Sequence record: PQ850608.1
DNA length: 64,000 bases
Strand: one strand, 5' to 3'
DNA from: Escherichia phage HermannAdler_Bas98
Shown piece after piece: positions 1-60,213 of the stretch (position 1 is its first letter; every line of letters begins with the position of its first letter). The position numbers and the translations under genes are program-made. The notes below the pieces were generated by a model that searched no databases, was not told where the DNA came from, and saw only the letters and a list, made by a program, of their open reading frames with translations.

Positions 1-240
1 TTCATCATTAACCAAAATGATAATTATTCTGGCGAATTTGATGAACACAAGTGTATGCTTGGATTTGATTCAGCAGAAGAAGCGAAAGAAGCTTATCAGG
101 CGTCATTTGGTAACGGTTGGAACGGATTTGACTCAATCCACGAATTGGATGTCAACTCATTCAAGGAGTGGTTGAAGGGTGATTGCTCTCAAGCATATGG
201 AGCACTCAACAATCCTACTAATTCACCGAAGCAAGGTTGA
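1..240 (+). CDS. 3' end of an upstream virion gene, possibly portal protein C-terminus
   Basis: Frame 1 is open from base 1 to TGA at 238-240. It lies directly upstream of a Mu F/SPP1 gp7-like gene, the usual portal position. No diagnostic motif seen. Confidence 0.3.
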   Translation, partial: FIINQNDNYSGEFDEHKCMLGFDSAEEAKEAYQASFGNGWNGFDSIHELDVNSFKEWLKGDCSQAYGALNNPTNSPKQG

Positions 241-241
241 T

Positions 242-1093
242 ATGGCTTTTAAAGCTTCGAAAAAACGTGAACGCCGCTTACCCGATAGAGTCGGGCGCGG
301 CAGTCCGATAATCCCATCCAACGCAATCGCGATGGCCTATCGTCGTGAGATGAAAGGTCTTTGCTATGCGATGATTGACGACTATCAAGAAGGAATTGCT
401 GAGTGGCTTGAAAAGAAGCAGGTAAAAAAATTCTTTGCGCAAGACTCTGCTGATTCAACTTTTCAAACCTTGATGAAGCGCCTTCAACTGAAATGGGCAA
501 AAGCATTCGCCCGTGTCGGGTCAAAGATTGCCGCAGATTTCATCAAGTCAGTTGAAAAGGGCGCGACTTCTGCTACATTTGCAAGTCTTAAATCTGCAGG
601 AATAGAAGCGCCAAAAGCCACATATAATAAATTCGTTGAGAACACTCTTAAAACAAGCGAGACGTTCAACACGACTTTAGTGACTAAGGTTGGCGAGGAT
701 ATTCACAACAGGGTGTACGAAGCGGTGATGCTTTCGCTGACTTCGCCAGACCCAGCGCAACAAGGCACGTCCGGCATTCAGGCGGCATTAAGGCATGTAA
801 AACACTTCTCTGCAAAACGCGTAGACCTTATCGCCAAAGACCAAACGAGCAAACTTTATTGCGTATTAAGTGATGAAAGAATGCGACAGAATGGCGTTGA
901 GGAATTTGAGTGGGCGCATTCAGGAGCAGGAAAAGAGCCGCGAATATCGCATGAGCATGTCGATGGGATGAGATTCAAGCTTGATGACAAACGCTTATGG
1001 GAAGTAGGTGGAGAACTTAAGTTCAAAAAGGGTGACATCGGTCCTCCTGGATGGGCGATACACTGCAAGTGCAGAAAAATACCAATTATCTGA
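242..1093 (+). CDS. head morphogenesis protein (phage Mu F / SPP1 gp7 family)
   Basis: 284 aa. C-terminal RISHEHVDGMRFKLDD ... GWAIHCKCR resembles the Mu F-like minor head protein signature. The ATG at 242 follows the upstream stop; the track ORF start at 179 would overlap it. Confidence 0.75.
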   Translation: MAFKASKKRERRLPDRVGRGSPIIPSNAIAMAYRREMKGLCYAMIDDYQEGIAEWLEKKQVKKFFAQDSADSTFQTLMKRLQLKWAKAFARVGSKIAADFIKSVEKGATSATFASLKSAGIEAPKATYNKFVENTLKTSETFNTTLVTKVGEDIHNRVYEAVMLSLTSPDPAQQGTSGIQAALRHVKHFSAKRVDLIAKDQTSKLYCVLSDERMRQNGVEEFEWAHSGAGKEPRISHEHVDGMRFKLDDKRLWEVGGELKFKKGDIGPPGWAIHCKCRKIPII

Positions 1094-1100
1094 GGTCATT

Positions 1101-2021
1101 ATGACGATACCAATCAACACATTCCCTCTATCTGGACAAACTCCAGTCTTGCCTGCGGTGTATGCTAATGGCTTGGCAATTGTCTCAGAATTCACTTCTG
1201 ATAAAAACTTGATTGTTCCACTGAGCCCGCCGCTTGCATCAGGGTATAACTCAGTAGGTCAATTCTTTATGATTGGAAATGATGGCGATTCGACCAGCAA
1301 GCCTAATCTGACATTGTCTGTACCTAAGATGGACATCACAGACGTTCAAACTGGCTTGACTGCATCAACAATCACCATTGCTTTTGGAGAAGCGGTGATT
1401 ATAGGAATGGAGTCTGGAGGGTCCAAGAATGCTGTCGCCGTTAAGGTAGTCAAATCCATCGACAACCAATACACGTTACCAGCTGCGACGGCTTCCGTTC
1501 TCGGCGGCGTCAAAATAGGAAGCGGAATAAGCGTCGCAGGTGACGGTACAATTAGCGTCACCCAATACTCATTGCCGATTGCGTCAGCATCTACTTTAGG
1601 CGGCGTAAAGGTCGGTACAACTCTATCAATTGATGGTTCCGGTGTGCTTAACGCAGCGGAAAGCACCGTCCAGAATGCCACGAACAGTGTTAGCAATCCT
1701 CCAACCACTTTGGTTAATCTGGCGACCTTAAACCTTCCTGCAGGAAAGTGGCTTGTGACGGCAAGTCAGTTGACTGTCGCGACAGCAGGAATTCAAGCGA
1801 ATACCGGAATTACATCCAAATTGTCAACAAGCGATTCAGATATTACGGATGATGCATTTACGATGTCAGCTGGCATTCGGGCTGCAGGTCGTTTCGGCGG
1901 CAATATTCCAACAAAGATAATTACTCTTGCCGCTCCTGGCGATGTGTATCTAAACTATCAATGCACAGATGCGTTGACATCTACCGTTTACGGACAGATC
2001 ACCGCAATCAAGCTGAACTAA
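1101..2021 (+). CDS. fibre-like virion protein with tandem LGGVK(I/V)G repeats
   Basis: GAGG SD precedes ATG 1101. Two adjacent repeats (YTLPAATASVLGGVKIGSGISVAGDGTISV and YSLPIASASTLGGVKVGTTLSIDGSGVLNA) resemble tail/head-fibre repeats. The rest is Ser/Thr/Ala/Gly-rich. Confidence 0.55.
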   Translation: MTIPINTFPLSGQTPVLPAVYANGLAIVSEFTSDKNLIVPLSPPLASGYNSVGQFFMIGNDGDSTSKPNLTLSVPKMDITDVQTGLTASTITIAFGEAVIIGMESGGSKNAVAVKVVKSIDNQYTLPAATASVLGGVKIGSGISVAGDGTISVTQYSLPIASASTLGGVKVGTTLSIDGSGVLNAAESTVQNATNSVSNPPTTLVNLATLNLPAGKWLVTASQLTVATAGIQANTGITSKLSTSDSDITDDAFTMSAGIRAAGRFGGNIPTKIITLAAPGDVYLNYQCTDALTSTVYGQITAIKLN

Positions 2022-2031
2022 AGAGGAAGTT

Positions 2032-2169
2032 ATGCAAAAGATTATTCAGTCACGTTATGTTAAAGTGCGAAATATTAATTGCAACTCTTTGCTTTCTTGG
2101 AAATGGGCCGTTTACGACTCGATGTTAATTGGCGTTTTAGTTGCAGGAGTGCTATTTAATATTCACTGA
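2032..2169 (+). CDS. small hypothetical membrane protein (45 aa)
   Basis: AGAGGAAG SD 4 nt before the ATG. Hydrophobic C-terminus MLIGVLVAGVLF. Below the ORF-track size cutoff, read by hand. Confidence 0.3.
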   Translation: MQKIIQSRYVKVRNINCNSLLSWKWAVYDSMLIGVLVAGVLFNIH

Positions 2170-2196
2170 ATTCATCGGCAAAGGATTGCCGCGAGT

Positions 2197-2480
2197 TTTA
2201 TACGTATAATGACGTATCATCCGTATCAAGTAAGTTATTGTTTTCAAAAGAATCTTACGGATGATACGGATGATACGCGTTGCCGCCGTACTATATAGGA
2301 ATTCAAATAAATTAATTTAAAATTATATATCTAATTTAATTTTATTTTTTTATAAACTCTTATATATGAAAAGTATCCGTATCATCCGTATCATCCGTAG
2401 CACACCAGTGATAGCGCGGCTTATACACCGATACGGATAAAAATACGCCTCATTTTATCCGTATCATCCGTATCACACTA
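2197..2480. repeat. iteron/AT-rich element, copy 1
   Basis: The 9-bp unit ATCATCCGT (reverse ACGGATGAT) occurs in tandem at 2212-2228, 2255-2279, 2373-2400 and 2455-2476, with a degenerate copy at 2431-2447. These flank an A/T core at 2296-2370. The element is homologous in order and orientation to 54530-54782. Confidence 0.8.
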
Positions 2481-2532
2481 ATAAAGGCGCGGCTATATTG
2501 GTTGTTATACATATTCAAACCATAATTATTGT

Positions 2533-2561
2533 TTGCCTAAGTTTTTTTCATTAGATATAAT
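2533..2561 (+). promoter_or_regulatory. sigma70-type promoter for the scaffold/capsid operon
   Basis: TTGCCT, 17-bp spacer, TATAAT, about 24 nt upstream of the 2585 start. Confidence 0.6.
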
Positions 2562-2584
2562 ACACAATACTTATTTGAGGGTGG

Positions 2585-4006
2585 ATGCGAATGCAAACGG
2601 CACGCGAAATTGACAAAAATGGATTCTTGACGATTATGGGTTGTCCAATTTCGTCATTTGGCATTTTTGATTATTCTGCTGGTCAAGTCGGTCTTGATGG
2701 TGATCCGAATCGCATCGTAAAAGTCTATCGCCCTGAGTCAGCGGTGAAAGACCCCGAAGCGATAGATTCATTCAAAAATATCCCTTTCATCGACAATCAC
2801 GAAATGCTTTCTGGATTTGAAGGTGATGAGGATAACACAGCACCCGAAGAGTATGGAGTTGATGGCGTTCTGACTGGCAATGTTTATTATGACAAGCCAT
2901 GGATGCGCGGCGACCTTAAAGTGTTTAGCCGTCGTCTGAAGAAGGCCATTGATTCTGGAAAGGTTGACTTGTCTTTGGGCTATGACTGTGAATTCATCAT
3001 ACAGTCTGGAGAGTTTGACGGGCAGCCGTATGAAGTGGTGCAGACAACTCTTCGCGGCAACCACATTGCTCTCGTGGACGTTGGTCGAGTACCAGGTGCA
3101 CGGGTGCTGGATGGTCGTTGCTTTGACCATCTTTGTTTGACGACTGTAACACCATCCAACGAGGATTTAGACATGCCAAAACCGTTAAAAGGTAAAGCGC
3201 GTGATAATGCTGTTGAACAGCTGAAATCACTGATCCCTGCGCTCGAACAATTTCTGAACGAAGAGAGTACTGAAGCTGCTCATCAGGACGAAGTTGAAGT
3301 GAAAGCAGAAGAGAAGGACTCAACCGAAAATCGTGAAGAAGTAATGGTTGATCCAGAAGTCAAGGCAGAAGCAGAAGAAACCCCAGAAGGTGAAGAGAAG
3401 TTTGAAGTTGAAACTGAATCTCACGCTGGCGGCGAACTTCCGCAATTGATCAGCCAAATCGAAGCACTTATTGCAAAACTGAAAGGTGGCGCGGTAGGTG
3501 ATGAAGAAGAAGTTGAAGCCGAAGTCAAAGACGAAGAAGAAGTTGAAGTCAAGGCTGAAGATGTATCACCTTGCGACAAAGCTGAAGATGTGGTTAGCGG
3601 CCTGCAAAACAGCAACGTAAAGGGGGCTTCGGTCGAAAAAGATGACAAACCGACAAAAGCGGCGAAAGCGTCGCCAGGTCCAGCAAAAGGGGAACACTCA
3701 ATGGCATCTGATTCAGCAGTTGCTGCTTTCTACGCTGATTCTGCTCGTAAGAATAGCCTCTACCAGCGCCTGTCTAAAGTTGTTGGTGCCTTTGATCATG
3801 CAACTATGGACTCCAAGTCCGTAGCGAAATATGGCGCTAAAAAGTTAGGCTTGAAGTGCGTTGATGGTGCTGAGTTTGACGTGGTGGATAATTATCTGCG
3901 CGGCGTTGAGCACGGTCAAAAACAGCGTGTAGTCGCAAAACAAAAGGCCGCTGCGGATTCTGCAGCAACTGACGAAGCATTTGAAGCTTGGTTGAAAGGG
4001 GAATAA
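2585..4006 (+). CDS. prohead scaffold / maturation protease-like protein
   Basis: 473 aa. The N-terminal half (LRGNHIALVDVGRVPGARV) resembles the DUF2213 phage prohead protein family. The C-terminal half is strongly acidic with EVKAE-type repeats. It lies just before the capsid gene. Confidence 0.55.
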   Translation: MRMQTAREIDKNGFLTIMGCPISSFGIFDYSAGQVGLDGDPNRIVKVYRPESAVKDPEAIDSFKNIPFIDNHEMLSGFEGDEDNTAPEEYGVDGVLTGNVYYDKPWMRGDLKVFSRRLKKAIDSGKVDLSLGYDCEFIIQSGEFDGQPYEVVQTTLRGNHIALVDVGRVPGARVLDGRCFDHLCLTTVTPSNEDLDMPKPLKGKARDNAVEQLKSLIPALEQFLNEESTEAAHQDEVEVKAEEKDSTENREEVMVDPEVKAEAEETPEGEEKFEVETESHAGGELPQLISQIEALIAKLKGGAVGDEEEVEAEVKDEEEVEVKAEDVSPCDKAEDVVSGLQNSNVKGASVEKDDKPTKAAKASPGPAKGEHSMASDSAVAAFYADSARKNSLYQRLSKVVGAFDHATMDSKSVAKYGAKKLGLKCVDGAEFDVVDNYLRGVEHGQKQRVVAKQKAAADSAATDEAFEAWLKGE

Positions 4007-54151: not shown

Positions 54152-54782
54152 TTTATACGTATTTATGACAGTTTAATCCACTAAATAATACGGATAGAAC
54201 AGTGAGGAAAATACAGCGGTGTATTTTAGTGTAAATATTGAATCAAAAATAAATAATTATGGTGCTATTATATACGCAGATTGTTTGTAATTTATAGGAT
54301 ATTTTATCGTGGAGTATTGGCTAACGGTGCGTTAGCCGTGGGTCTTGGTGCTTGTGGTGTTGATGCTCAGAATTTTAATAATGTTTTTAGTTTTAGTAAT
54401 CGTAGTCAATGATGATACGTATAAGAAAATGAGAGTCACCCCTTCACAGGATATTGTACCGTGGCCCTGTGGTGCGCCGCGCCTGGGATTGCTGGTATAC
54501 ACTGGTGCTATTTTGCCGCGAAGGCAGTCATTCATACGTATCATGACGTATCATTGGGCTATTGATTTATAAGGAAAAATACGCTGATACGGATGATACG
54601 GGTGCAAACATAATATATATAGAATTCCAGAAAATTAATTAACTCCATTTTGAATTAATTTAAATTAATTTTTTTCTACATCCTCATACTTATACTAAAC
54701 TTATATTCATACGTATCATCCGTAAGATATAAGTAAAAACAAGGACTTGCGGCAATACGGATGATACGTCATGATACGCTTC
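54152..54782. repeat. iteron/AT-rich element, copy 2, with outlying half-sites
   Basis: ATACGTATCATGACGTATCAT at 54533-54554, GATACGGATGATACGG at 54586-54602, an A/T core at 54605-54677, CATACGTATCATCCGT at 54708-54724, ATACGGATGATACGTCATGATACG at 54755-54778. Outliers are TTTATACGTATTTATGAC at 54152-54169 and AATACGGATA at 54187-54196. Confidence 0.8.
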
Positions 54783-54943
54783 GACCAGCCAGCAGCGGCT
54801 AAGTCATTGATTTGCATAGCAAGCGGCGAAAGGGATGGATTTCTTTTATACGTATCAAACAGTACACCACGCACCACGGTCCGCAATCCTATTTGCAATA
54901 TGATTTGTGTACGTTTATAGCCATAATGAACATCAATCTGCAC

Positions 54944-54972
54944 TTGAATATAATGTCCATCCATTGTATAAT
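54944..54972 (+). promoter_or_regulatory. sigma70-type promoter upstream of the TerS-like gene
   Basis: TTGAAT, 17-bp spacer, TATAAT. The predicted start site lies just before the first ATTTGCACTAT pair. Confidence 0.5.
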
Positions 54973-54992
54973 TCACACTATTAATTTGCACT

Positions 54993-55481
54993 ATGGGATT
55001 TTGCACTATGAGTCAAGATTATGTAGCGATGCCTGAAGACTTTGAAGACCCGCGATTCGCAGAGCACAATCAGGCTTTATTCGATGAGTTCATTGACCTT
55101 GTTATTCAGGGTCATGACATGCGCGCAGCTTTTGCACTAGTATTTGGAATGGAAGTTGCAACGGATAACTACACTGGCCAGCGAATCCTTTGCACGCAAC
55201 GCAATCCATACTACAAGATGCGCTTCAAAAAGCGTATGGAAGAGATGCCACTCAAGGATTTGTGGAGCGTAAAAGGTGCAATTCACAATTTGGTCAAGCT
55301 TGTGCGTGATCCAGAAGTCGCGGCGTCAGCCAAGCTTAATGCTATTCGTGAACTGAATATCATCTACGGCATCACGATGATTGATGAAAACGGCAATAGT
55401 AAAATGGGCCGTTCTATGGACGATTTCTACAAGGATTTTGGAGAGGCTGCCAAAGAAGGAGAGCAATTCTCCCGCCACTAG
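54993..55481 (+). CDS. small-terminase-like protein (tentative)
   Basis: HDMRAAFALVFGM ... QRNPYYKMRFKKRMEE ... DLWSVKGAIHNLVKLVRD ... AKLNAIRELNIIYGI has the HTH plus oligomerisation-helix pattern of TerS proteins. The start may instead be ATG 55008. No adjacent large terminase. Confidence 0.4.
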   Translation: MGFCTMSQDYVAMPEDFEDPRFAEHNQALFDEFIDLVIQGHDMRAAFALVFGMEVATDNYTGQRILCTQRNPYYKMRFKKRMEEMPLKDLWSVKGAIHNLVKLVRDPEVAASAKLNAIRELNIIYGITMIDENGNSKMGRSMDDFYKDFGEAAKEGEQFSRH

Positions 55482-55500
55482 CCAATTTGCACTATAAAAC

Positions 55501-55534
55501 GGCCCTAGAACACATGTTCTCCACTTCTAGGGCC
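55501..55534. terminator. 10-bp-stem hairpin (minus-strand terminator, possibly bidirectional)
   Basis: GGCCCTAGAA, 14-nt loop, TTCTAGGGCC. On the minus strand it is followed by GUUUUAUAG. Confidence 0.5.
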
Positions 55535-55595
55535 ATCGGTAATACGACGGGGAAGGTCGCACCCATAAACGCGTTAGAAAGTGTATTATTATAAG

Positions 55596-55859
55596 TCATC
55601 TTTTAGTCGCTTTACGTAACAATTTACGACCTTCAACCGTCCAATCGAACGACTCCACCAGCAGATTCGCACTATAACCTAAGACGATGCGCCCTTTCTC
55701 GTTATCGACCCGCCAACAAGTCTCGAATAGCATTCGATTTGCACTATTAACTATTGCCGCAACGCGCGTAGGGTAAGCGCAATTTGCACTATGGTCGTAA
55801 AGGGATAAGGTGCGACCACTTCCGATGGACAATGTAGCGATGAGAATAAGCGTATTCAT
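55596..55859 (-). CDS. hypothetical protein with hydrophobic N-terminus
   Basis: 87 aa starting MNTLILIATLSIGSG. Carries three copies of the ATTTGCACTAT motif on the opposite strand, each read as SAN. Confidence 0.4.
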   Translation of the reverse strand: MNTLILIATLSIGSGRTLSLYDHSANCAYPTRVAAIVNSANRMLFETCWRVDNEKGRIVLGYSANLLVESFDWTVEGRKLLRKATKR

Positions 55860-55880
55860 AAGCCACCAATTTGCACTATG

Positions 55881-55902
55881 AAAAGCGACCCCGAAGGGCC
55901 GC
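55881..55902 (-). terminator. intrinsic terminator after 55910-56536
   Basis: Minus strand: GCGGCCC-UUCG-GGGUCGC (one G-U pair) followed by UUUUCAU. Confidence 0.6.
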
Positions 55903-55909
55903 CATTCGA

Positions 55910-56536
55910 TTAGATAATCTGGAAGGTGTAGGACTTGTTGCCGAACTCGAAGTTCAAGCGTCCAGCTTCTTTAAGCTTCATGCGGAAGCGAATGTGCTTG
56001 CTATCCGGTAATCCCAGCGCGGCGAAGGCTACGCGGACCGATTTGAACTCGCCTACACCCTCGACCATAACGCCGTTACGGGTGAGACGCTTTTGCGCCA
56101 CTTCCTTATTATCCCAACTTTTTGCAATACCTTCGCTATTCGAACGGCGATGGGAAGGAGTTCCATTTTGCACTACGCAATTTGCACTATCGTTTAAGCC
56201 GCTCTTAACGAAGGCTTCATACTCTTCATCGCTCATCGCGTCGAGTTCTTCCTGGGTCGGCTCAGCCTTTTTAACGACCGCACGCGCCTTATGCGTTTTT
56301 ACATCACTGGACACTTCCTCACGCGGCTTCGCGTCGGGAATGGGCGATTCGTTGGACGGCTCATCGAGCGCGTTTAAGGACTCGATTAACGCGATTACGC
56401 GAGTCTCGGCGGTCCGGCGGTCCGCAAATTTCTTAATCGGCTTCGAACCGGAATTTGCATTATAAAATGCAACGAGGTCGGCGGTCTTAGTTGCGATAAC
56501 GTCGCCGCTAGTAGAAAAGCGATTTAAGCTAACCAT
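55910..56536 (-). CDS. hypothetical protein
   Basis: 208 aa. RBS context TAGGAGTTTATTATGG is shared with 56617-56931. CpG-rich codon usage. Confidence 0.5.
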   Translation of the reverse strand: MVSLNRFSTSGDVIATKTADLVAFYNANSGSKPIKKFADRRTAETRVIALIESLNALDEPSNESPIPDAKPREEVSSDVKTHKARAVVKKAEPTQEELDAMSDEEYEAFVKSGLNDSANCVVQNGTPSHRRSNSEGIAKSWDNKEVAQKRLTRNGVMVEGVGEFKSVRVAFAALGLPDSKHIRFRMKLKEAGRLNFEFGNKSYTFQII

Positions 56537-56616
56537 AATAAACTCCTATTTGTTAGGGCGCTAGGCGCGAAAGAATTTTATTAAAGCGCCGCGCACGACG
56601 CTCTAAAAATCCTCTC

Positions 56617-56931
56617 TTACTCTTCGTCGTCTTCGATTAATTCGAGGGCGAAGGCGTAAGCTTTGCTATCGTAATTAACTAAAACGGCGAGTTCGAACTC
56701 GTTAATAAACGCCGTTTTACCGCATAAATTTAATTCCGCATCGACTTCGAAGAATCCGTTTTCGTCGCGCTCTAAGCGAGAAGCAGCGAGTTGCTCGATT
56801 ACCGTCGCGTCGTTAATTTCTTCGCCTAAGCGAACGCCGGAGAATTTCGCGAGAATTTCGCCGTAAGTAAGCGTAACGCCCTGGACTTCGGCGGCGGCGT
56901 TTTCGAGGGTAAAGCGGGTAACGATAGCCAT
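56617..56931 (-). CDS. small acidic protein (104 aa)
   Basis: Ends LIEDDEE. Driven by the minus-strand copy of the promoter-leader cassette. SD is AGGAG. Confidence 0.55.
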   Translation of the reverse strand: MAIVTRFTLENAAAEVQGVTLTYGEILAKFSGVRLGEEINDATVIEQLAASRLERDENGFFEVDAELNLCGKTAFINEFELAVLVNYDSKAYAFALELIEDDEE

Positions 56932-56955
56932 AATAAACTCCTAGTTGGGAGAGGC

Positions 56956-57038
56956 GTTAACGACCTATTCGTTAACTCATCCCGTCCCGATATGAGTACA
57001 TTATAATATAGTGTAGAAAAAAGTAAAGCACTTTTTCG
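56956..57038 (-). promoter_or_regulatory. promoter-leader cassette P3 (minus strand)
   Basis: Minus strand: AAAAAGTGCTTTACT, 16-bp spacer, TATAAT, then CATATCGGGACGGGATGAG, then hairpin GTTAACG-AATAGGT-CGTTAAC (56976-56956), then AACTAGGAG SD. Confidence 0.65.
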
Positions 57039-57071
57039 ATAAAAATGCGATAAATTATTTTATCTTTTTTC

Positions 57072-57117
57072 TTTACTTCTTCGTACACTCGCGTATACTT
57101 GTTTATATCGAGACGGG
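57072..57117 (+). promoter_or_regulatory. promoter-leader cassette P1
   Basis: TTTACT (57072-57077), 16-bp spacer, TATACT (57094-57099), then TATATCGAGACGGG (57104-57117). Confidence 0.65.
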
Positions 57118-57155
57118 CGATGGCCCTTTCTTCTACTAGCATCGGGAGCTTTATT

Positions 57156-57458
57156 ATGACTACTTTAATCTCTTCCATCCTTACTTACGACGAAGACCGC
57201 TTAACCGTTCGCTCTCTTATCGCCGCCGTTAACGCGGAACTAGAATCTAGCGCCATTAAGGTCCGCGCGGTCGCCTTCATCGGCCTTTCCTTCGACGATA
57301 TGAAGTATGCCGAACGTAGCGCCATCCGCTTCGCGAAGACCGACGACGAAGCCGTTACCCTTATCGAGACGGTTACGCCGCGCGGCGAAGCGTTAATTAT
57401 CGTCGAGTATATCGACGTAGAAGGCGATAAATCTTATAAACATTTTATCGCAGAATAA
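57156..57458 (+). CDS. small acidic protein (100 aa)
   Basis: GGGAG SD before ATG 57156. Downstream of cassette copy P1. The track start 57099 lies inside the promoter. Confidence 0.55.
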   Translation: MTTLISSILTYDEDRLTVRSLIAAVNAELESSAIKVRAVAFIGLSFDDMKYAERSAIRFAKTDDEAVTLIETVTPRGEALIIVEYIDVEGDKSYKHFIAE

Positions 57459-57459
57459 C

Positions 57460-57542
57460 GAAAAAAGTGCTTTACTTCTTCGTACACTAAGACTATAATG
57501 TTTTATATCGAGAGGGGATGAGGTAGCGAATAGGTCACTACC
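57460..57542 (+). promoter_or_regulatory. promoter-leader cassette P2
   Basis: AAAAAAGTGCTTTACT, 17-bp spacer, TATAAT (57494-57499), then TATATCGAGAGGGGATGAG, then hairpin GGTAGCG-AATAGGT-CACTACC (57522-57542), then AACTAGGAG SD. Confidence 0.65.
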
Positions 57543-57566
57543 CTCCCGACTAACTAGGAGAATATT

Positions 57567-57857
57567 ATGATTACTTTAGCCGCTATCCGTTCCGCTCGCG
57601 TCGAAACTTCCGAAAACTCTAACGTATTTGGCGAAAAACTTAAAAACGTTTATCTCTTTAACGTAGATGCGACTATCGAGGAGCTTCACAGTCCTATCGA
57701 TTTTAGCGAATTTACGGAACTCGAAGAGGAAGATATTTCTACCTTCCGCGTTACTATCGAAGGCAAGGTTTATTTTGCTACGGAGTTCGGCGGCGAATAT
57801 CTCGCGGTATCCGAAGGCGAAGGCCGTTACTCTTTCTTTAAAATCGTTTCCTTATAA
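57567..57857 (+). CDS. small acidic protein (96 aa)
   Basis: TAGGAG SD. Downstream of cassette copy P2. Followed by terminator 57877-57902. Confidence 0.55.
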   Translation: MITLAAIRSARVETSENSNVFGEKLKNVYLFNVDATIEELHSPIDFSEFTELEEEDISTFRVTIEGKVYFATEFGGEYLAVSEGEGRYSFFKIVSL

Positions 57858-57876
57858 TACCCTTCCGTTACTAATA

Positions 57877-57902
57877 GGCCGCGCTTAGTCGCGGCTTTTC
57901 TT
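57877..57902 (+). terminator. intrinsic terminator
   Basis: GCCGCG-cttagt-CGCGGC followed by TTTTCTT. Confidence 0.65.
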
Positions 57903-58021
57903 CGTCCCTATCTCGATGCGCTCCTACGCGAAAACTCCTTTATCCTTCCCTTCGTCGTCGCATAATCTTCTTCGAGATGCGTCTTAGTTCGCATAACAGG
58001 TATTACGTTAAATGGAGAACA

Positions 58022-58102
58022 TCGCGTAAGTCCTTGTTTTATATAGACACCTATATCGGACCGTTAGGGCGGGTCGCGTAAGTCGTTGTTTTATAAAGGC
58101 AC
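58022..58102 (+). repeat. 29-bp direct repeat pair
   Basis: TCGCGTAAGTCCTTGTTTTATATAGACAC (58022-58050) against TCGCGTAAGTCGTTGTTTTATAAAGGCAC (58074-58102). Confidence 0.8.
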
Positions 58103-58220
58103 AAAACTTTCCCTTCGTTCCGAACTAAAACGAGAAATATGCCGACCCTTCGCCCGAAAATAGTACGTATGCGAAATTACATTCATCTCGAATAATCCCT
58201 CCCGATATTATCCTACACGC

Positions 58221-58283
58221 AATCATTCGCTTTCGAATCATTATGCTTCATATTATTATGCGTCGAATCATTCGCTTTCGAAT
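58221..58283 (+). repeat. 18-bp direct repeat pair, internally palindromic
   Basis: AATCATTCGCTTTCGAAT at 58221-58238 and 58266-58283. Each contains ATTCG-CTTT-CGAAT. Confidence 0.8.
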
Positions 58284-58498
58284 TGTAACGCTGGAAACTG
58301 TAACGTCGATTGATTATTGCGTTCGTGTGGTTTTTATGGCATGGGTCTTTTGGTGCGTTTTGCTACTTGATGGAATTTGCGGTACACTAATCAAAATACG
58401 ACACATTTGGTCCACTAACTTTTCAAAGAAAAAGTCCTAGACAGTACCGTACTATTTTGTACCCACAGGAAATTTGCAGTACACTCCTGAGCGGCAGG

Positions 58499-58526
58499 CA
58501 AAATAAAGGGCCGCACTAAGCGACCC
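58499..58526 (-). terminator. intrinsic terminator after 58556-58936
   Basis: Minus strand: GGGUCGC-UUAGU-GCGGCCC (one U-G pair) followed by UUUAUUUU. Confidence 0.6.
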
Positions 58527-58555
58527 ACGATTCACGGTTAAATCAGCAACACCCA

Positions 58556-58936
58556 CTATTCGCTCTTATGGGCATCACCAAAGCCATCCGCAATCTGGCT
58601 GATCAATGATTCAATGGACACAGTTTTACCAATTGATCGAGCGGTAATAGCAAGCATATTATCAATCAAACCATGATTGGATGCATATGGTCCAGGTTTT
58701 GAATCATCTTCAGGACAACCAAAAAGCTGGTCGCGCAAACTTTCGAGAGAACGCTCAATATTTTCCAGCTTCTCTTCTAAATCAGATTGGCGACGTAAAA
58801 CCCATGTTAAGTCTCGGTTGCCGACTTCCAATCCATCGAAATCGCAAGCTGGAACGTCAATTTTAATACTTGGATTAAAAGCAGTACCGCTGCCTTTAGT
58901 ATATTTGTGGTGATTGCGATCAATAGTTTGTGACAT
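58556..58936 (-). CDS. hypothetical protein
   Basis: ATG 58936 (MSQTIDRN...) is preferred over the track start 59002. Followed by terminator 58499-58526. Confidence 0.5.
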   Translation of the reverse strand: MSQTIDRNHHKYTKGSGTAFNPSIKIDVPACDFDGLEVGNRDLTWVLRRQSDLEEKLENIERSLESLRDQLFGCPEDDSKPGPYASNHGLIDNMLAITARSIGKTVSIESLISQIADGFGDAHKSE

Positions 58937-59030
58937 ATCATTACCTTTAATATTTGGGTGATTAACAATAACTATAATAAAGCCGCATAGCGCGGCATTC
59001 AAATCGGTTTGTTAATTGTAACGATTGAAT

Positions 59031-59126
59031 TTACTTATCCAACCAATCAATAAGCGCAATCATAGCAACAACAAATACTGCGCTGATTGCTAATATGATC
59101 AAGAACATCACAAAATCAACATTCAT
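59031..59126 (-). CDS. small hydrophobic peptide (31 aa)
   Basis: MNVDFVMFLIILAISAVFVVAMIALIDWLDK, the distal part of track ORF 59031-59309. Overlaps the end of the upstream gene by 11 nt. Confidence 0.3.
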   Translation of the reverse strand: MNVDFVMFLIILAISAVFVVAMIALIDWLDK

Positions 59127-59352
59127 CAATCGATACCAATTGTGCAGGGTCGCCGGATACAGTTGCGCCGATGATACCCATATGAGAGAAAAATTCTGAA
59201 TAAACTTCTTTCCAGTACTTGCGCGCAGCTTTCTGGGCTTGCCCTTTGCGCTTGTAGCTTTTACCTTGGAAGATGAAGCGGTCGTTTGCTGCGTTATATT
59301 CCACCACACCTTCCAGCCATTGTAAGAAAGCTACTGATTCATTTTGATTCAT
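59116..59352 (-). CDS. hypothetical protein
   Basis: 78 aa. Preferred over the overlapping frame 59031-59309 on amino-acid composition. Confidence 0.45.
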   Translation of the reverse strand: MNQNESVAFLQWLEGVVEYNAANDRFIFQGKSYKRKGQAQKAARKYWKEVYSEFFSHMGIIGATVSGDPAQLVSIDEC

Positions 59353-59359
59353 GTTAACC

Positions 59360-59755
59360 TCAACAATCTAATAAGAAAATTTTTAACCAGCTTTCTGCAA
59401 CCTCGCGGCCCGTAGCCAATCGGTCGGTATTTTCCATTGGTCTGGATTTACCGCATGGCAATCCTTTCTGTAGTTGTGTCCCACTGCCAATTCTTATCCA
59501 AATTTCCCCATCCTTGTCGACGTAGGCTTGGCAACCCATAATATCAAGTCTACTCATTAGGGTGTTAAAAACCTTGAGCCTTTCTTTGGCGATGTTGGCT
59601 GTTCCTCCATTTCTTGGACCACGGCGATTAACAGTCCGCTTCACAACCGGAATATCATTGGTGCGTCGCGGCTTGGGGCGGTAGTAGGCTTCTTCACCAG
59701 GAGTGACACCTGGCGTCAGTTCGCGCTTAAGCGCCTTTTCAATATCAATGATCAT
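59360..59755 (-). CDS. hypothetical basic protein
   Basis: 131-aa ORF. Confidence 0.45.
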   Translation of the reverse strand: MIIDIEKALKRELTPGVTPGEEAYYRPKPRRTNDIPVVKRTVNRRGPRNGGTANIAKERLKVFNTLMSRLDIMGCQAYVDKDGEIWIRIGSGTQLQKGLPCGKSRPMENTDRLATGREVAESWLKIFLLDC

Positions 59756-59758
59756 GAT

Positions 59759-59857
59759 TTATGCCGCAGCAGCGTGGATGATTGCGTAAACTATGCCAAA
59801 CAGGGCAACAACACAAACTGTGCCCCAAAATGCAAAGCGTCGTGCCTCTTTATCCAT
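59759..59857 (-). CDS. small hydrophobic peptide (32 aa)
   Basis: Read by hand: MDKEARRFAFWGTVCVVALFGIVYAIIHAAAA. Fills the gap between flanking genes. Confidence 0.3.
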   Translation of the reverse strand: MDKEARRFAFWGTVCVVALFGIVYAIIHAAAA

Positions 59858-60146
59858 TAGAGCCTTCTCCGCTGTTAATGTTGTCCAGAATCAAGGTTGG
59901 AATTTCATCTTGAGTCCTGACTTTGTAATGCGAAGGCATTTTGCTTTCTAACAATGCTTGTTCAGCTTCTCCCTTTGTCTCAAAGAGCGGGATGCACCAA
60001 TCAACTGCATTGCCGTGTTCATCACCCTTGACGGCTTTCAAAAAGACAAGGCGCTTGTCTTCAGGGTCGATGCCGCAAATTAAGTATTTTGGAAGAGCTT
60101 TTGCTTTTTGAGCTTTATCAATATCTTCAAATTTCATTTCATTCAC
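59850..60146 (-). CDS. hypothetical protein
   Basis: 98 aa. First gene after promoter 60168-60195. Confidence 0.5.
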   Translation of the reverse strand: MNEMKFEDIDKAQKAKALPKYLICGIDPEDKRLVFLKAVKGDEHGNAVDWCIPLFETKGEAEQALLESKMPSHYKVRTQDEIPTLILDNINSGEGSNG

Positions 60147-60167
60147 CTCACTTGTTAACGTATAATG

Positions 60168-60213
60168 AGTATAACTTAATAGTGAATAAAGTAAAGGCGC
60201 TTTTCAGCGCCTT
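60168..60213 (-). promoter_or_regulatory. terminator-promoter junction after the fibre gene
   Basis: Minus-strand hairpin AAGGCGC-tgaaaa-GCGCCTT. Its T-tract runs into -35 TTTACT (60195-60190), then a 16-bp spacer and TATACT (60173-60168). Confidence 0.55.

Follow-up and report, generated by a model that had tools for sequence, protein, structure and literature searches.

Three T7 A1-like promoter-leader cassettes with a predicted 5'-proximal stem-loop in the terminal repeat of the Wifcevirus Escherichia phage HermannAdler_Bas98

A 64,000-nucleotide stretch of Escherichia phage HermannAdler_Bas98 (PQ850608.1), hereafter the window, carries three copies of a promoter-leader unit, named P1, P2 and P3, each placed in front of a gene for a small acidic protein. 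The surrounding region (55900-58300) is 97.7% identical to positions 1253-3653 of phage vB_EcoM_WFC (WFC) and 90-97% identical to 27 further records, nearly all Wifcevirus; the phage is a Wifcevirus, an E. coli myovirus of a genus distantly related to the PB1-like Pseudomonas phages. An exact repeat of 3784 bp is common to both ends of the WFC record, and the final 25 bases of this repeat map to position 58431 of the window, from which a direct terminal repeat (DTR) of 54648-58431 (no strand) was deduced, its start being calculated from the 3784-bp length. In phage Mansfield, the annotated DTR (1-3673) includes the homologous stretch. By this mapping the entire cassette cluster is placed inside the ~3.8-kb DTR, in the middle of the repeat. 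Infection by Wifcevirus has been reported to be complete in 3-5 min, quicker than by T7 (PMC11990801). No published promoter analysis of Wifcevirus was found, and the word 'promoter' is absent from the BASEL paper.

The three units were recovered by sequence inspection and a sigma70 scan at the positions given by the first-pass annotation, which had been made from the letters alone. P3 (57000-57038, minus strand) consists of an A-tract/AAAAAGTG, a -35 hexamer TTTACT (57027-57022) and a -10 hexamer TATAAT (57005-57000) with a 16-bp spacer. P1 (57072-57099, plus strand) has TTTACT (57072-57077) and TATACT (57094-57099), also 16 bp apart, and P2 (57460-57499, plus strand) combines GAAAAAAGTG with TTTACT (57471-57476), a 17-bp spacer and TATAAT (57494-57499). 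With near-consensus hexamers and spacers in the range of 16-18 bp, all three are sigma70 promoters by sequence; P2 and P3 are the two top sigma70-like sites in 55000-60000 (10/12 matches each), and P1 matches at 9/12. P1 and P3 stand back to back with 44 bp between their -35 hexamers, and the P1-P2 repeat spacing is 399-400 bp, both in agreement with the annotation. The three promoters account, one each, for every exact copy of the 19-mer CTTTACTTNTTNNTACACT in the 64 kb, and allowing up to three mismatches gave four matches versus 0.46 expected; for TATATCGRGANGGG there were six matches versus 1.3 expected, one of them a relic at 58196-58209 (minus strand). The P3 promoter is unchanged in nearly all Wifcevirus genomes. 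As GTGCTTTACTT-N15/16-TATAAT is present in more than 120 unrelated viral contigs of IMG/VR, the A-tract/-35 half of the unit is a generic form of strong phage early promoters and not specific to the cassette. The spacers of all three promoters contain TACACT (57084-57089, 57483-57488 and, on the minus strand, 57015-57010), at approximately -22 to -17. This TACACT, or ACAC, is kept in all three Wifcevirus promoters and most Kylevirus promoters (loci L069 and L187) and is absent from T7 A1; a conserved TACACT in the spacer is unusual for a sigma70 promoter.

Gene A (56617-56931, minus strand; 104 amino acids (aa)) is the first gene behind P3 and is followed by a conserved 208-aa gene (55910-56536, minus strand). 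On the rightward side lie gene B (57156-57458, plus strand; 100 aa), annotated as the same 303-nt coding sequence in WFC, and gene C (57567-57857, plus strand; 96 aa). The predicted pI values of the products of genes A, B and C (4.07, 4.65 and 4.40, respectively) bear out their description as acidic proteins. Family searches returned no Pfam, PHROG or PDB match for gene A, no family match for gene B and no family or PDB match for gene C; host takeover and the countering of host defences are candidate functions for all three. Genes B and C are unrelated to each other, and the idea of tandem ~400-bp cassettes was not sustained; only the promoter, the leader and the translation-start region are repeated. 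An intrinsic terminator at 57876-57907 (plus strand; 8-bp stem with six GC pairs and a T-rich tail), also annotated in WFC and Mansfield, ends the rightward P1/P2 unit, and neither the sequence nor the terminator scan revealed a terminator between gene B and P2. The open reading frame (ORF) list and the Mansfield annotation contain no coding sequence between the rightward terminator and the DTR end. Comparison of homologous loci (L001, L195, L260, L263 and L265) showed that the gene A slot is occupied by the 104-aa form in the window and WFC, by a 94-aa allele (31% identical) in Mansfield, AV128 and TH35, and is empty in ECML-117, Eco4M-7, Ro157lw and RCIP0319, where P3 drives the 208-aa gene directly. 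The P3 leader is unchanged while the gene behind it is swapped or deleted. An extra ~50-aa gene is inserted between gene B and P2 in AV128, ECO71P1 and RCIP0363.

The leaders of P2 and P3 fold into a two-tier stem-loop in RNAfold. The P3 leader (56938-56993, minus strand) has a predicted start at A56993 or A56991 (AUAUCGGGACGGG), deduced from the -10 spacing, and a Shine-Dalgarno (SD) sequence UAGGAG at 56943-56938. Its lower helix is formed by GGGA (56988-56985) with UCCC (56950-56947) and GGG (56983-56981) with CUC (56953-56951). Above an internal loop AUGA, an upper helix of 8 bp (56976-56969 with 56963-56956) closes a pentaloop AUAGG (56968-56964). The P2 leader (57505-57560, plus strand) is predicted to start at A57507 (AUCGAGAGGGG, like T7 A1) or A57505 and has its SD UAGGAG at 57555-57560. 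Here, the outer and lower pairs are AG 57511-57512 with CU 57550-57551, GGGA 57515-57518 with UCCC 57544-57547 and G57520 with C57543; the upper helix (57522-57529 with 57535-57542) contains a C57527·A57537 mismatch and carries the same pentaloop (57530-57534). The SD lies 12-13 nt downstream of the hairpin in both leaders. Seven-bp arms around a loop AAUAGGU had been proposed for both, and at the DNA level they were indeed found where expected, as GGTAGCG-AATAGGT-CACTACC at 57522-57542 (plus strand) and GTTAACG-AATAGGT-CGTTAAC at 56976-56956 (minus strand). The P2 arms, however, pair at only six of the seven positions in this genome. In RNAfold an extra A-U pair closes the loop, which gives the 8-bp stem and AUAGG pentaloop on the GGGA/UCCC lower helix. 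The P2 mismatch results from G->A at 57537, costs ~5 kcal/mol and is seen in this genome only among ~21 genomes and contigs, all others having the 3' arm CGCTACC instead of CACTACC; a genuine variant and an error of sequencing are both possible explanations.

The predicted free energy of the P3 leader is -17.1 kcal/mol (45-nt leader: -15.9 kcal/mol, z = -2.05). For P2 the window sequence gave -15.9 kcal/mol (z = -0.98) over 64 nt and -15.2 kcal/mol (z = -1.56) over 45 nt, and the genus consensus -21.3 kcal/mol (z = -2.9) and -20.6 kcal/mol (z = -3.1), respectively. The pattern GGGATGAG-N6-AATAGGT occurs in the window exactly at 57515-57535 (plus strand) and 56983-56963 (minus strand). When the same pattern was used to look for a wider family in IMG/VR, 66 loci were retrieved, of which only those of Wifcevirus have complementary arms, the rest being chance matches in coding DNA. 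No covariance model of Rfam 15 matched the leaders, the sole sub-threshold chance match being NsiR4 (E = 1.8) at the terminator, and no similar sequence was found in 5,426 E. coli genomes.

Several functions of such a hairpin were rejected on structural grounds. A terminator or attenuator lacks the expected U-tract, as the hairpins run into CCUCCCGAC (P2) and GCCUCUCCC (P3), and none was called by the terminator scan. SD sequestration by CCUCC of the 3' strand does not hold in relatives, which have CUUC or CGCC, and such pairing was never predicted by RNAfold. The promoters of the N4 virion RNA polymerase are DNA hairpins with a 3-nt loop located upstream of the start and without sigma70 hexamers, whereas here the loops measure 5-7 nt and each hairpin is preceded, at a distance of 15-35 nt, by a canonical sigma70 promoter. 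Both hairpin leaders also contain a two-codon mini-ORF, AUG AGG UAG in P2 (57518-57526) and AUG AGU UAA in P3 (56980-56972), the stop codon of which (UAG in P3 of ECML-117) lies in the 5' arm and survives the compensatory change. It has no properly spaced SD, is absent from T7 and P1, and is probably incidental.

P1 had been described as lacking the hairpin. Its leader (57105-57155, plus strand; predicted start A57107 (AUCGAGACGGG), SD GGGAG at 57144-57148) nevertheless contains a shorter predicted one at the same place, in which GGGC (57115-57118) and GCCC (57123-57126) enclose GAUG and are stacked on GAGA/UUUC. This hairpin exists in three versions, GGGC-GAUG-GCCC in the window, GAGGC-GAUGG-GCCUC in Mansfield and GGGAG-GCGUU-CUCCC in ECO71P1.

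Ten distinct P2/P3 leaders, from 16 sequences (the window, 13 phage records and two IMG/VR contigs), were aligned. Pairing is maintained across the 8-bp helix in 98.8% of the alignment cells, compared with 15-56% for slid partners, and arm positions 2 and 5 carry the double compensatory changes between P2 and P3 that had been noticed in the window (G-C/U-A and G-C/A-U), with an identical loop. Relatives show two independent one-sided changes, both A->G and both leaving a G·U pair: the ECML-117/Ro157lw/RCIP0319 group has its change in the 5' arm, Eco4M-7 in the 3' arm. The sole pair-breaking change in the alignment is the one in P2 of this window. The lower helix accepts C->U in Mansfield (G·U) and is remade in another register, GACGGG/CCCGUC (z = -2.9), in TH35, IMGVR_152943 and several contigs. 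A metagenome scan with the promoter and start sequence yielded five more Wifcevirus contigs and no new stem or loop variants. The alignment thus upheld the conserved helix with compensatory and G·U changes, but both double changes stem from one P2/P3 split. Taken together, the comparison supports, on a narrow evidence base, a selected RNA-level stem-loop in the 5' untranslated region (5' UTR) just upstream of the SD.

The same arms could also act at the level of DNA or transcription, as a palindromic operator or roadblock for an early-shut-off protein, as an initial transcribed region with a nascent hairpin under selection for fast promoter escape only, or as a functionless repeat maintained by quasi-palindrome correction. 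The P3 arms are a perfect palindrome containing GTTAAC, symmetric arm changes are what quasi-palindrome correction would produce, and P2 begins with AUCGAGAGGG, a start shared with T7 A1 (see below); the region just downstream of +1 affects the strength of strong phage promoters. On the other hand, the centre of 5-7 nt is asymmetric and has the same orientation to transcription in both copies, a protein operator would be expected to conserve the arm sequence and not its complementarity, and three of the four single stem changes keep pairing in the sense RNA only (A-U->G·U twice, G-C->G·U once), a proportion that does not differ significantly from the 50% expected by chance. We consider a DNA- or transcription-level explanation unlikely.

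The identical AAUAGGU loop had been put forward as a sign of function, but it carries little weight, because P2 and P3 differ at only four of the first 32 leader positions and the whole cassette, from -45 to +40, is nearly invariant across ~21 Wifcevirus genomes and contigs, so that zero changes in seven loop bases are unremarkable. Variable sites are scarce from -45 to the hairpin end and are concentrated in the 3' strand of the lower helix.

The only other genus found with these promoters is Kylevirus, represented by the Pantoea phages Kyle and PA1. It has four promoters, which share with those of Wifcevirus the layout CTTTACT...TACAC...TATAATGT(T)TAT-ATCG and are likewise arranged divergently, and it also carries the conserved gene of 208-221 aa. 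Its leader c is the orthologue of P3 (GTATCTCATAGGG versus GTACTCATATCGGG; start GTATCTCATA) and can be drawn as GGC-GA-CGG AAUAGA CCG-AA-GCC, a 3+3-bp stem with a tandem GA/AA mismatch. The hairpins of leader d have other loops, GAAGGGG-AAAUGAA-CCUCUUC in Kyle and AAAGC-GAAGUGA-GCUUU in PA1, and leaders a and b have no hairpin. The loop AAUAGA of leader c is ambiguous as a case of cross-genus loop conservation, since MAFFT aligns the Kylevirus AAUAG with GGGAUGAG of Wifcevirus and not with the loop. The cassette was absent from Myosmarvirus and the other distant PB1-like loci examined via the 208-aa protein, among which Pbunavirus matches were not included. The generic promoter form is also present in an unrelated environmental phage group of IMG/VR contigs (L077, L082, L102, L121, L139, L151, L156 and L180; 30-67 kb), in which a very stable hairpin, ACGUAGCU-AAUA-GGCUACGU, at +6 is followed by a second hairpin and a strong SD (leader z = -3.95). 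The likeness of this group was set aside as coincidental, since the contigs match nothing in the phage collection and the leader folds differently; the letters GUAGC.AAUAGG in common with P2 are probably due to chance.

The closest described relative of the cassette is the T7 A1 early promoter together with the initial ~36 nt of its transcript. The T7 A1 transcript, read from the annotated +1 (NC_001604, position 498) as AUCGAGAGGGACACGGCGAAUAGCCAUCCCAAUCGAC, was compared with the genus-consensus P2, AUCGAGAGGGGAUGAGGUAGCGAAUAGGUCGCUACCCUCCCGAC. The two share the first 10 nt AUCGAGAGGG (10/10), the octamer GCGAAUAG (8/8), the GGGA/UCCC helix and a CGAC tail, and in both the -10 hexamer is 7 nt from the start A; the match to AUCGAGAGGG is 9/10 for P1 (AUCGAGACGG) and 8/10 for P3 (AUCGGGACGG). 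They also have in common the A-rich upstream element TTTATC.AAAAAG.GT..TT.ACTT, and T7 A1 is located near the genome end. The first cargo is the acidic anti-restriction protein Ocr in T7 and small acidic proteins here. In contrast, the hexamers are TTGACT/GATACT in T7 A1 and TTTACT/TATAAT here, and T7 has an untranslated leader of ~430 nt with RNase III processing before the first gene, whereas in the cassette the SD follows the hairpin closely.

Folding of T7 A1 gave three tiers, UCGA/UCGA, GGGA/UCCC and GGC-GAAUA-GCC, at -15.9 kcal/mol with one unpaired 5' nt (z = -5.0 for a 40-nt leader and -2.4 for 45 nt). A tiered GGGA/UCCC hairpin with an apical GAAUA is thus predicted for T7 A1, P2 and P3, with GCGAAUAG in a different register; the apical helix has 3 bp and a C-G-closed GAAUA loop in T7 A1, and 8 bp and an A-U-closed AUAGG loop in P2/P3. 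The transcripts of T7 A2 and A3 also begin with hairpins, that of A2 being flush with +1. The tiers are kept in T7 relatives, with a compensatory GGC/GCC -> GGU/ACC in 13a and another loop, CUUAAA, in the Pila, C5 and Yep15 group. In local alignments with T7 A1, between 1 and 17 of 3000 dinucleotide shuffles scored as high as the P2 leader, the number varying with the gap costs, while 224-807 of 3000 shuffles reached the scores of P1, P3 and Kylevirus c, none of which is individually significant. Within IMG/VR, TCGAGAGGG-N3-14-CGAATAG occurs at promoters only in T7 and Wifcevirus. The likeness of T7 A1 and P2 could reflect either common descent or convergence. The literature searched offered no function for the T7 A1 hairpin, the leader sequence appearing there only as a transcription template.

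What P1-P3, the Kylevirus leaders and T7 A1-A3 have in common is a 5'-proximal hairpin whose sequence and loop vary, a pattern more in keeping with a generic structural role than with a specific operator. The apical hairpin could instead be the sequence-specific operator of a phage or host RNA-binding protein that shuts off, times or boosts translation of the genes behind P2 and P3. Consistent with an operator, the loop and its closing pairs, GCGAAUAGGUCGC, are the same in P2, P3 and every genome and contig, while stem positions 2 and 5 have changed on both sides; GAAUAG is found again in the T7 A1 apical hairpin, and possibly in that of Kylevirus c (CGG-AAUAGA-CCG), and the hairpin stands close upstream of the SD. 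It would then act like the T4 gp43 or RegA operators or the coat-protein hairpins, and small 5' UTR hairpins near an early-gene SD are likewise found in the T4 gene 43 and RegA operators and lambda boxB. Unlike these, the P2/P3 motif is not repeated elsewhere in the genome and has no known cognate protein, with no candidate binding protein among the searched gene products. A scan of the 64 kb for further AAUAG-loop hairpins gave no excess (14 weak candidates versus 10.5 in shuffles; two weak candidates near 48.2 kb lie antisense to an ORF), and there is thus no sign of a regulon, which weakens the dedicated translational repressor suggested in the first-pass annotation. The motif is also missing from P1 and from two to three of the four Kylevirus leaders, the letters shared with T7 stand in another register (GAAUA closed by C-G, against AUAGG closed by A-U in Wifcevirus), the MAFFT alignment sets the Kylevirus AAUAG against GGGAUGAG, and the invariance of the loop is within expectation for a cassette of near-zero diversity. 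An operator is therefore regarded as doubtful, although it has a somewhat better claim than a DNA-level role.

A related proposal, which we likewise hold to be unlikely, is that the apical GAAUAG(G) of P2/P3, T7 A1 and perhaps Kylevirus c is a conserved recognition element on the first phage transcripts. If so, it would be read by a host or phage factor, for example to time shut-off, to give immediate-early mRNAs selective protection, or to couple transcription to genome entry. Unrelated fast-lysing coliphages would then share an early-RNA signal, and the much-used T7 A1 leader would gain a biological function.

The stacked helices also raise the question of cleavage. A two-tier helix of 13-15 bp with an asymmetric AUGA internal loop could serve as a processing site for RNase III or another endonuclease, trimming the leader or splitting B from C as do the R sites of T7, and the RNase III sites of T7 have a similar layout of stacked helices with an internal loop. 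With no terminator before P2, transcripts from P1 should carry the P2 hairpin internally. However, RNase III substrates typically have a coaxial helix of ~two helical turns, ~20 bp, and the present helix falls below that length; the hairpins of P1 and Kylevirus are limited to 4-8 bp, no cistron that would need splitting off lies upstream of P3, and there is neither sequence similarity to the T7 R sites nor an Rfam match. Processing is accordingly considered improbable.

Still less probable, to the point of being very remote, is a lambda-type nut (boxB) or put-like RNA that would confer resistance to the terminator at 57876-57907 or to leftward terminators. An early hairpin in a transcript ending at a terminator would be in place for such a role, and the T7 A1 loop GAAUA fits G-N-R-N-A. 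Nevertheless, no boxA (CGCUCUUUA-like, YGCTCTTTA) is present in 56900-57600 (36 matches versus 31.7 expected window-wide), the loop AUAGG or AAUAGGU is not GNRA-like (G1, A5), and the stem has 8 bp (7 bp with AAUAGGU) and not 5. Nothing coding lies past the rightward terminator within the DTR, and no Rfam model matched. The antitermination site proposed in the first-pass annotation thus lacks a boxA and departs from the boxB rules for both loop and stem.

We judge the chances to be about even that the three units are T7-A1-type immediate-early expression cassettes, the 5'-proximal stem-loop of which protects or insulates the mRNA; most likely they are ordinary, though undescribed, early cassettes and not a new kind of regulatory RNA. 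Host sigma70 RNA polymerase would read them once the terminal repeat enters the cell. Each would comprise an A-rich upstream element and a near-consensus promoter, a start sequence AUCGRGASGGG that is conserved and doubles as the 5' strand of the stem-loop, the imperfect 5'-proximal stem-loop itself (GGGA/UCCC lower helix and an apical helix of 4 bp in P1 or 8 bp in P2 and P3), and a short single-stranded linker in which a strong SD (UAGGAG or GGGAG) is followed by a U/A-rich spacer and the AUG, the context of which is conserved. The cassette would serve as a portable front end before unrelated small acidic cargo genes. The action of the stem-loop is most likely a physical one. By pairing the 5' end, with ~3-4 nt left free if the start is T7 A1-like, the stem-loop would slow RppH/RNase E 5'-end-dependent decay, and by locking the leader in its own fold it would keep the SD free whatever gene follows; the nascent hairpin possibly also aids promoter clearance.

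A base-paired 5' end is described as shielding E. coli mRNA from RNase E in a passage of PMC3997798 that cites papers of the Belasco laboratory. The ompA 5' UTR hp1 and the papA stabilisers (Emory/Bouvet/Belasco 1992, cited through PMC3997798) are likewise hairpins near the 5' end of highly expressed mRNAs, and resemble the cassette in that the structure is kept and the sequence free, followed by a single-stranded ribosome-binding region. The predicted 3-6-nt tail of the cassette, however, is at or past the length reported to permit protection, and the cassette's apical part is conserved beyond the needs of a pure stabiliser.

Other observations also weigh against protection or insulation by the stem-loop. 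RNAfold leaves an unpaired 5' tail of 3-4 nt if transcription starts at AUCG and 5-6 nt if it starts at AUAUCG, the start being inferred, and Emory et al. 1992 reportedly found that 5-6 unpaired 5' nt weaken protection by a 5' hairpin. The fold z-scores of the window's own leaders are modest (-0.4 to -2.1), the covariation rests on a single divergence of two paralogues, and quasi-palindrome correction of the DNA could also maintain arm complementarity. A generic role leaves unexplained both the two hairpin-free Kylevirus promoters (a and b) and the apical GAAUAG common to P2/P3, T7 A1 and perhaps Kylevirus c. In T7, RNase III cuts the A1 5' end from the gene 0.3 mRNA, and the A1 hairpin is therefore not a stabiliser of that mRNA.

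These results locate the immediate-early promoters of Wifcevirus in the terminal repeat, define a compact portable module of promoter, 5' hairpin and SD, and connect it with the well-known promoter-leader of T7 A1, without establishing a new class of RNA regulator. In practice the module is of use for early-gene annotation in Wifcevirus and Kylevirus and as a natural strong expression cassette.

Elsewhere in the DTR, degenerate relics of the ATATCGG box had been reported, and matches were indeed found at ~58051 (plus strand) and 58196-58209 (minus strand). The former accompanies two tandem 29-nt copies (58022-58050 and 58074-58102, plus strand; direct repeat, 90% identity) set 52 bp apart, which by eye resemble a decayed P1-like -10/start (TCGCGTAAGTCCTTGTTTTATATAGACAC versus CGCGTATACTTGTTTATATCGAGAC in P1), with CTATATCGGACCG at ~58051. 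Their -10 is destroyed, and as no -35 lies upstream the copies are probably relics. The latter was identified by promoter and motif scans as a weak promoter-like site, TCGAAA-18-GATAAT (58236-58207), followed by AATATCGGGAGGGA (58196-58236, minus strand), a degenerate fourth cassette. The DTR right end (57900-58431, ~530 bp) has no convincing genes and is rich in repeats, including CATTCGCTTTCGAAT twice (58224 and 58269) and an inverted repeat 57968-57995/58168-58195. Just beyond the DTR, a fourth promoter of the same family, CTTTACTTTATTCACTATTAAGTTATACT, is located at 60143-60209 (minus strand) directly after a terminator-like hairpin (GCGCTGAAAAGCGC); it has a short leader without a hairpin and drives a 98-aa gene (59850-60146).

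In the left half of the DTR, the 11-mer ATAGTGCAAAT clusters in and between the TerS-like, 87-aa and 208-aa genes, with 10 copies (up to one mismatch) in 54891-56463, all on the minus strand (11 versus 1.9 expected over the 64 kb). In Pantoea phage PA1, TAGTGCAAA is present in about five copies immediately behind the homologous gene (L069 5085-5400). The ATAGTGCAAAT repeats may be a terminase/packaging set or a phage-specific promoter/operator motif.

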